A stretch of 5,384 nt of DNA, from the IMG/VR virus record IMGVR_UViG_2537562231_000019. The stretch is one strand, 5' to 3'. The position numbers and the translations under genes were made by a program. The DNA is from a virus (lineage: Duplodnaviria; Heunggongvirae; Uroviricota; Caudoviricetes). Shown here in pieces: positions 1,645 to 1,772 of this stretch; position 1 is the first letter of the stretch, and the number at the start of each line of letters is the position of its first letter. Under the pieces are notes generated by a model that was not told the DNA's origin, made no database searches, and saw only the letters and a list, made by a program, of their open reading frames with translations.

Positions 1645-1772
1645 GCAAATGTTAACTGCTGCCTGGTTAACATTTGCTGAAAAAGCCTGTTAACATTTTT
1701 TCCGCACAACAAACTGAATAATAAAGATAAAAACCGCAAAAATGCCCGGGCAGCCAGTTAACATGTTAACTG
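1645..1772. repeat. Cluster of five GTTAAC-core repeats (consensus A[A/C]ATGTTAAC): inverted pair GCAAATGTTAAC-N9-GTTAACATTTGC (1645-1677), single site 1689-1698, perfect 18-bp palindrome CAGTTAACATGTTAACTG (1755-1772). Candidate cos / terminase-binding or operator sites
   Basis: Read directly from the sequence. Five of the seven GTTAAC hexamers in the whole window fall within about 125 bp of the HNH-terS intergenic region. Confidence 0.6.

Follow-up and report, generated by a model that had tools for sequence, protein, structure and literature searches.

What reads the dense cluster of GTTAAC-core repeats that separates the HNH endonuclease gene from the small terminase gene (terS) of a lambdoid prophage? 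The DNA analysed here is a stretch of 5,384 nucleotides, called the window throughout. An earlier note on it had proposed the small terminase subunit (TerS), the HNH or another accessory protein, or a dimeric regulator as possible readers.

The GTTAAC array and its setting

Along the minus strand the window carries genes for lysozyme, Rz/Rz1, a TonB_C lipoprotein and an HNH endonuclease, then a 290-bp spacer, terS and terL, and on sequence grounds it is a Pankowvirus/Marienburgvirus-like lambdoid prophage. The region is 93–99% identical to BP-4795, 2851, 1717, YYZ-2008, phi330 and Lys8385Vzw (genera Pankowvirus and Marienburgvirus), which are Stx1a-, Stx2a- and Stx2c-converting and related lambdoid phages. 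Of 5426 complete E. coli genomes, 1277 carry the HNH-terS spacer, with a maximum of seven copies in one genome; a plasmid search with the region returned the same prophage sequence only. HNH endonucleases are packaging accessory nucleases in HK97-type systems, and the synteny of HNH with terS/terL is kept in nearly all relatives. The genes and array elements are listed below, with distances counted from the predicted cut (next section) towards terS.

1..1014, minus strand: terL, large terminase, N-terminal part, the gene being cut by the window edge (Pfam TerL_ATPase PF03354, E 5.8e-12)
1011..1574, minus strand: terS, small terminase, 187 aa, GTG start (Pfam Terminase_2; PHROG 641, E 1e-67); overlaps the terL start at 1011–1014
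1577..1585, minus strand: GGGAGGAGG, the Shine-Dalgarno sequence for the terS start now in use, identified by inspection
1645–1656 / 1666–1677, both strands: inverted pair GCAAATGTTAAC-N9-GTTAACATTTGC, sites 5 and 4, GTTAAC at +148 and +133
1689..1698, minus strand: single site 3, AAATGTTAAC, GTTAAC at +110
1699..1754: AT-rich spacer of 56 bp, GC 0.41, with T5, T5, T3 and T3 tracts starting 14, 23, 31 and 43 nt in
1755..1772, both strands: perfect 18-bp palindrome CAGTTAACATGTTAACTG, sites 2 and 1, GTTAAC at +42 and +34
1865..2230, minus strand: HNH endonuclease gene (Pfam HNH, E 3.7e-8; PHROG 589)

GTTAAC occurs eight times in the window against 1.0 expected, a count that 0 of 200 dinucleotide shuffles reached, and five of the eight hexamers are clustered, at 1651, 1666, 1689, 1757 and 1765. 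The earlier note had counted only two others; there are three (181, 3139 and 4679). The longer motif AMATGTTAAC has exactly five matches in the window, all perfect, against 0.67 expected (0/200 shuffles), at 1647–1656 (+), 1666–1675 (-), 1689–1698 (-), 1757–1766 (-) and 1761–1770 (+), three of them forward and two reverse relative to terS. The 12-bp arms GCAAATGTTAAC and GTTAACATTTGC are 100% complementary across a 9-nt spacer. The description that had been given of the cluster, as five repeats in the terS-HNH spacer comprising an inverted pair with a 9-bp spacer, a single site and a perfect 18-bp palindrome, was thus borne out, with five perfect copies at 1647–1770. Some sites also share flanks: 16 nt are common to 1684–1699 and 1752–1767 at 88% identity (site 3 and the distal half of the palindrome), and 11 nt are common to 1649–1659 and 1763–1773 at 100%. 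The site spacings of 8, 68, 23 and 15 bp show no helical phasing. A search for the IHF consensus WATCAANNNNTTR with at most one mismatch across 1575–1864 gave no match, and the roughly phased T-tracts of 1699–1754 possibly form an intrinsic bend.

Five GTTAAC and five ATGTTAAC are present in each of the 79 close relatives in which the region is complete. When 60 unique sequences were aligned, 0 of 44 motif columns varied, against 25 of 185 other columns of the spacer (Fisher p = 0.006), with variable positions directly adjoining the 10-mers. This contrast is a modest one, as much of the non-motif spacer is well conserved among close relatives and the terS-proximal 70 bp are also nearly invariant. 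The terS Shine-Dalgarno sequence GGGAGGAGG is unchanged in the 60 unique relatives. One family member, L063 (IMG/VR 2671181134_000002), has about 49 codons inside terS duplicated in tandem and in frame (PEVLAFIARKQ...PQPDENN repeated), and an unchanged five-site cos region.

Predicted position of the cohesive-end site

The ends of two related phages have been mapped. PhageTerm analysis of Lys8385Vzw after induction assigned this phage to the cos type, its 3' cohesive ends being CGCCCCCCCT, which stands at the genome end (Zhang et al., PMC7946995); its TerS is 93% identical to that of the window. The junction in the Lys8385Vzw record reads ...GGACACCGCCCCCCCT/CTCACGCAGAGAAAAAATTCCCG, the slash marking the cut, and the minus strand of the window reads ...GGACACCGCGCCCCCT/CTCACGCAGAGAAAAAATTCCCG at the same junction, with the cut between 1804 and 1803. 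Acinetobacter phage fEg-Aba01 has 10-nt 3' ends CGCCCCCCAT, established by PhageTerm and heat/anneal restriction analysis (PMC7354433). Its junction is GGACACCGCCCCCCAT/CGCACGCACAAAAAAAATTCCC, and its TerS has the same helix-turn-helix (HTH) as that of the window. By homology to these two end-mapped phages we infer that cosN of the window lies at 1804–1813, among the following elements.

1782..1795, minus strand: conserved A-tract block GAGAAAAAATTCCC, +9 to +22, between cosN and the palindrome
1804..1813, minus strand: putative cosN with a 10-nt 3' cohesive end CGCGCCCCCT, by homology to the mapped ends of Lys8385Vzw and fEg-Aba01
1849..1855, minus strand: G7 run, kept in every relative and in HK97, about 45 bp upstream of the cut

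This position is outside the repeat cluster, 32 bp away from it. Counted from the cut towards terS, the GTTAAC hexamers start at +34, +42, +110, +133 and +148 and terS at +230, so that with cosN at 1804–1813 the sites would fall in the first 34–153 bp of the packaged left end. An HK97-type cos between HNH and terS had been expected, with the repeats placed like a cosB. Both expectations agree with what we found: the order is HNH-cos-terS-terL, the mapped ends of the relatives fall in the spacer, and the repeats lie 34–153 bp from those ends in the direction of terS, in the part of the packaged left end where lambda has its cosB and HK97 its TerS site. Judged by synteny and end type, the window belongs to the HK97-type cos class.

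Downstream of the cut, no element is conserved more widely than the block GAGAAAAAATTCCC, which is found from E. coli to Acinetobacter and Burkholderia phages. It may be a rival or a further terminase contact, analogous to the HK97 site at +15..+29. The G7 run may be a cosQ-like or left-side element.

Several observations concern the surroundings of the cut in other loci. The pacL and pacR regions of SPP1/SF6, which flank the cleavage site, have several repeated boxes on bent DNA. In the IMG/VR loci L111–L113, ATTAAC stands alone on the terS side at +36, and two GTTAAC and two GTTAAT lie on the HNH side at about -107 to -64 (GAGTTAACTGGTTAATTACCGGGTTAATTACATGGTTGCAGTCATGTTAACTG); sites can therefore occupy either side of the cut, reminiscent of pacL/pacR in SPP1. 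In a PPompW prophage (L119; LC567822.1, locus 2775–4233) ISEc20, of the IS110 family, abuts the cos region at the equivalent of about window position 1850; HNH and the lysis genes are missing, and terS/terL and all five GTTAAC are retained. Many relatives have Fur-box-like AT-rich repeats (TGAAATCATTTCA...AATGATAGTGATTCTCATTTGCA; GATGATAATTATTATCATTT) just upstream of the G-run and cosN, as seen in L014, L015, L016, L018, L019, L021, L025, HK97 (L126) and DLP12 (L120, about 5570–5600); the window has none.

The array motif and the terS start codon

In Salmonella phage FSL SP-016 the HNH-terS spacer is about 106 bp long and homologous to window 1757–1864. Its terS starts inside the counterpart of the palindrome, at GTAAACATGTTAACAG, where ATG TTA ACA encodes Met-Leu-Thr. 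Because this start codon sits in the palindrome counterpart, we identify the motif ATGTTAAC as the ancestral terS start; the window palindrome at 1755–1772 is homologous to the start GTAAACATGTTAACAG of the relatives.

Further relatives were found by scans with a TerS alignment. The overlap of site and start is seen in Atlantibacter, Kluyvera, Kosakonia, Enterobacter, Phytobacter, Citrobacter, Serratia, Rouxiella, Pantoea, Erwinia and Buttiauxella, with GTTAAC at +41/42, a GTAAAC, ATTAAC or ATAAAC half-site at +33/34 and the start at +39/40. About 20 other genera with the same TerS HTH have one GTTAAC at +35 to +48, usually overlapping the terS start. When 22 lineages were aligned on the cut, 19 had GTTAAC at +34..+48, compared to a background of 0.24 per kb in the rest of the loci; most of the lineages are related, so that the cross-genus counts lack independence. 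One-mismatch variants occur in the other three, at +34 to +36 in two and at +70 in an Acinetobacter MAG. The comparative alignment that the earlier note had suggested thus reveals a GTTAAC at array distance that is conserved across many genera sharing the TerS HTH.

Where the terS start is displaced downstream, a GTTAAC-type site stays non-coding at the same distance from the cut and is sometimes duplicated, in some lineages as direct repeats 12–13 bp apart. Individual arrangements are as follows.

Proteus: GTTAAC at +36; terS start at +65
Pantoea sp. BAV 3049 and IMG-VR L115/L116: GTTAAC at +35 and +48, GTAAAC at +57; terS start at +76
IMG-VR L117/L118: GTTAAC-type sites at +35 and +47; terS start at +75
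fEg-Aba01: GTTAAA at +34, +47 and +58; terS start at +73
Burkholderia vB_PR2a: GTTAAT at +36, overlapping the ATG; terS start at +40

Displaced-start lineages still encode M-L-T, with CTN for Leu2 where the overlap lineages have TTA. The window terS begins with GTGCTGAC (GTG CTG ACA), so the motif has been lost at the real start by synonymous change while the five non-coding copies are perfect. This indicates selection on the DNA hexamer itself and not on the codons.

The earlier note had set store by the presence of the repeats in syntenic functional phages. That holds for the part of the array nearest the cut, since a GTTAAC-type site at palindrome distance is kept, and fails for sites 3–5 (1647–1698), which are lacking in relatives that form plaques and share the synteny, for example FSL SP-016 and fEg-Aba01. 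Sites 3–5 are thus a lineage-specific expansion and not a universal requirement. Comparison of the loci suggests that the array grew, probably by duplication, from one ancestral site that overlapped the terS start. Intermediate architectures were sought among the TerS relatives and none was found: overall TerS identity is 91% or more, or else 48% or less.

These findings raise the alternative that the palindrome alone matters and that sites 3–5 and the inverted repeat are functionless leftovers of the shift in the terS start. Functional relatives do manage without sites 3–5; yet all five 10-mers are perfect and identical throughout the 60 unique sequences, in which columns right beside them and elsewhere in the spacer vary, and the actual start codon region, constrained by coding alone, has diverged from the motif. 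The site pairs with common flanks suggest duplication, and since TerS is at least 91% identical throughout the E. coli family the expansion may be young. The site has multiplied in independent lineages too, however. A local alignment of the terS 5' end to 1575–1790 for a degenerate tandem duplication gave the 10-mer alone as its best match, with 24 of 1000 shuffles scoring as high. We consider it unlikely that sites 3–5 are such leftovers, and favor an array in which all five sites function.

Readers of the repeats and a model for packaging

The N-terminus of TerS (residues 2–57) matches Terminase_2 (PF03592) with 36.0 bits, above the gathering cutoff of 26.1, and has weak matches in the PDB to 4zc3, 2cmp and 3zqp, of which 4zc3 and 2cmp are the DNA-binding domain of SF6 G1P. 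Its HTH, AAIxAGYSxKxAxxKGSQLAKDP, is nearly constant across all lineages with the site and is the one protein feature that is constant across all of them. The HNH protein almost always accompanies the motif, at 31–67% identity and in more than one subtype, and GTTAAC persists beside HNH proteins that are merely 31–41% identical. To judge from these sequences, HNH is less likely to be the specific reader of the repeats.

The repeats might still act in cos through another protein, be it HNH, the large terminase (TerL) or a host nucleoid protein, with TerS bound to the A-tract block at +9..+22. HNH co-occurs with the motif in nearly all loci, but it diverges while GTTAAC stays the same, and the constant part is the TerS HTH. 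The HK97 TerS binds an A-tract-containing site beside the cut, and GAGAAAAAATTCCC is conserved more widely than any other element downstream of the cut; the HK97 protein, however, is of a different family with no Terminase_2 match. A host nucleoid protein finds no support in the IHF search, and the weak in vitro specificity of SF6-type TerS (PMC9611059) would favor a reader other than TerS. Taken together, these points make a non-TerS reader rather unlikely.

A dimeric regulator such as the YlcI-like DUF3950 protein could use the palindromes as operators, or hairpins in the late transcript could control terS translation. In favor are the palindromic form of the sites, the DUF3950 gene at a distance of 500 bp, whose product has a ribbon-helix-helix look in its sequence pattern, and the 12-bp inverted repeat, which could fold in mRNA. 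However, none of the 33 distant loci that retain GTTAAC has DUF3950, and in DLP12 a near-identical YlcI adjoins a lambda-type cos (GGGCGGCGACCT) and nohD, with GTTAAC absent nearby; the suggestion of a YlcI-like operator was therefore dropped on both counts. Sites in other lineages are direct repeats incapable of forming hairpins. Both the operator and the hairpin are, in our view, very improbable. Other candidates were also rejected. The fold z-score of -1.75, 0 terminator-like sites and no Rfam match argue against an RNA hairpin, a terminator or an RNA family, and CRP or Fis sites, compared by eye, misfit in half-sites or spacing. A promoter search of the region gave a weak match on the plus strand only, opposite to terS, and a PDB sequence search with DUF3950 returned nothing useful.

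Since the TerS HTH is near-constant, HNH is varied, DUF3950 is absent and RNA and transcription signals are unremarkable, TerS is the most likely reader. That the sites function in cos recognition we regard as likely. The further step, that TerS reads them and that the array works as set out below, is on balance probable and draws on co-occurrence and on analogy with known systems. One position of the HTH varies with architecture: residue 35 of TerS (window 1470–1472), after KTA[RKQ], is Val or Ile in five lineages (the window, Proteus, L111, L024 and L117), which have a displaced terS start or multiple non-coding sites, and Ser in 14 lineages with a start codon overlapping a single GTTAAC. 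This pattern could reflect covariation or shared ancestry.

The cosB of lambda has the order R3-I1-R2-R1, with three R sites in mixed orientation over 120 bp and an IHF bend between them, and lambda-like phages fall into those with a complex cosB (lambda, 21, Monarch) and those with a simple one (N15, one R site) (PMC4669245). The array resembles lambda cosB in having several copies of a short motif in mixed orientation over about 120 bp on the terS side of cosN, ending just upstream of terS, and the family of the window is split like lambda and N15, most genera having a simple site and the Stx-phage group of E. coli a complex array. The differences are that the relatives' ends have a 10-nt 3' overhang, whereas lambda has a 12-nt 5' overhang; that the window TerS has a Terminase_2 HTH, whereas lambda gpNu1 is a winged-HTH dimer; and that the window has phased T-tracts only and no IHF consensus between the sites, an HNH accessory nuclease and an unrelated motif. 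As it departs from lambda in TerS fold family, end chemistry and IHF site, the array is not a member of the lambda cosB family.

HK97 TerS uses one 15-bp A-tract-containing site at +15..+29 that is threaded partly through the TerS channel (PMC11331095). The window shares with HK97 the HNH-cos-terS-terL synteny, the 10-nt 3' overhang (by homology), an A/T-tract just downstream of the cut and a G-run about 45 bp upstream of it. Unlike HK97, it has a Terminase_2 TerS instead of the gp1 family, and its candidate sites are five palindromic hexamers from +34 (+34..+153) instead of one site. The G1P proteins of SPP1/SF6 have an N-terminal DNA-binding domain in the same Pfam family (Terminase_2), but these phages use headful (pac) packaging with no HNH partner and no cohesive ends. 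The SF6/SPP1 TerS, which is structurally characterised, has little demonstrable sequence specificity in vitro, and how small terminases read DNA is still disputed (PMC9611059).

By analogy with these systems, we propose that the five AMATGTTAAC sites probably form a 'complex' cosB-like array of TerS sites in an HK97-type cos. Late in infection, an oligomer of the Terminase_2-family TerS would bind the GTTAAC cores via its N-terminal HTH domains. With sites in mixed orientation and a T-tract spacer among them, the DNA could bend or wrap, and a bend in the 56-bp spacer (+47 to +110) would return the distal sites (+110 to +153) toward the palindrome. Bound TerS would then anchor TerL, with the help of HNH, on cosN about 30 bp away (1804–1813), where TerL and HNH would nick to give a 10-nt 3' cohesive end, and packaging would run toward terS. 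Sites 3–5 are not essential to this kind of terminase, as there are functional relatives without them. In evolutionary terms, one site at an ATG TTA ACA start would have become five, now separated by about 190 bp from the new GTG start. More speculatively, the TerS site and the terS initiation codon could originally have been the same DNA, which the Stx-phage lineage uncoupled and multiplied to five, giving a higher-order TerS-DNA complex with altered packaging efficiency or specificity that could govern which of the up to seven co-resident EHEC prophages, defective ones included, are packaged in trans. We put this full scenario forward as a doubtful one.

A literature search turned up no account of these repeats, or of a cosB in this group of phages, and the database records of 2851, BP-4795 and phi330 leave the repeats unannotated and have no precise cos annotation. 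The feature is very probably a packaging-recognition array and undescribed before; the present analysis adds two points, where cosN should lie and how the motif relates to the start codon of terS. About one complete E. coli genome in four carries this cos region, as do many Stx1/Stx2-converting phages. Its recognition sites would decide which DNA these terminases package, including cross-packaged defective prophages and possible satellites. Cross-packaging of defective prophages has been reported for Sp4 and Sp14 of O157 Sakai, which have a different (lambda-type) cos (PMC2669165). The natural series of one, two, three and five hexamer copies with a near-constant HTH offers a clean system in which to compare wrapping and threading models, and a defined cos cassette could yield cosmid-like vectors from these phages.

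Outside the cos region, within window 5018–5384, the left end of an IS1 begins at about 5101 (GGTGATGCTGCCAACTTACTGAT...), with insA from 5157, and truncates the plus-strand ORF MDNNTISLQELLDSISRLREDVNTLTVA (phrog_2411). The minus-strand lipoprotein gene at 2604–2936 encodes a TonB C-terminal domain (Pfam TonB_C, E 9e-15) and stands in place of lambda bor; the label 'Rz-like spanin' that PHROGs gives to its family seems doubtful. The lysozyme gene lies at 4379–4912, and as no holin gene is visible upstream of it, this prophage copy may be lysis-defective. The interval of about 640 bp between lysozyme and Rz (3737–4378) contains a GC hairpin with a T-run near 4255–4290 and small hydrophobic ORFs.

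3836–4108, minus strand: hydrophobic ORF (phrog_3246, E 4e-59)
3955–4086, minus strand: hydrophobic ORF (phrog_4906)
4089–4301, minus strand: hydrophobic ORF (phrog_6632)

As a whole, 3737–4378 looks like an uncharacterised insert in the lysis cassette.
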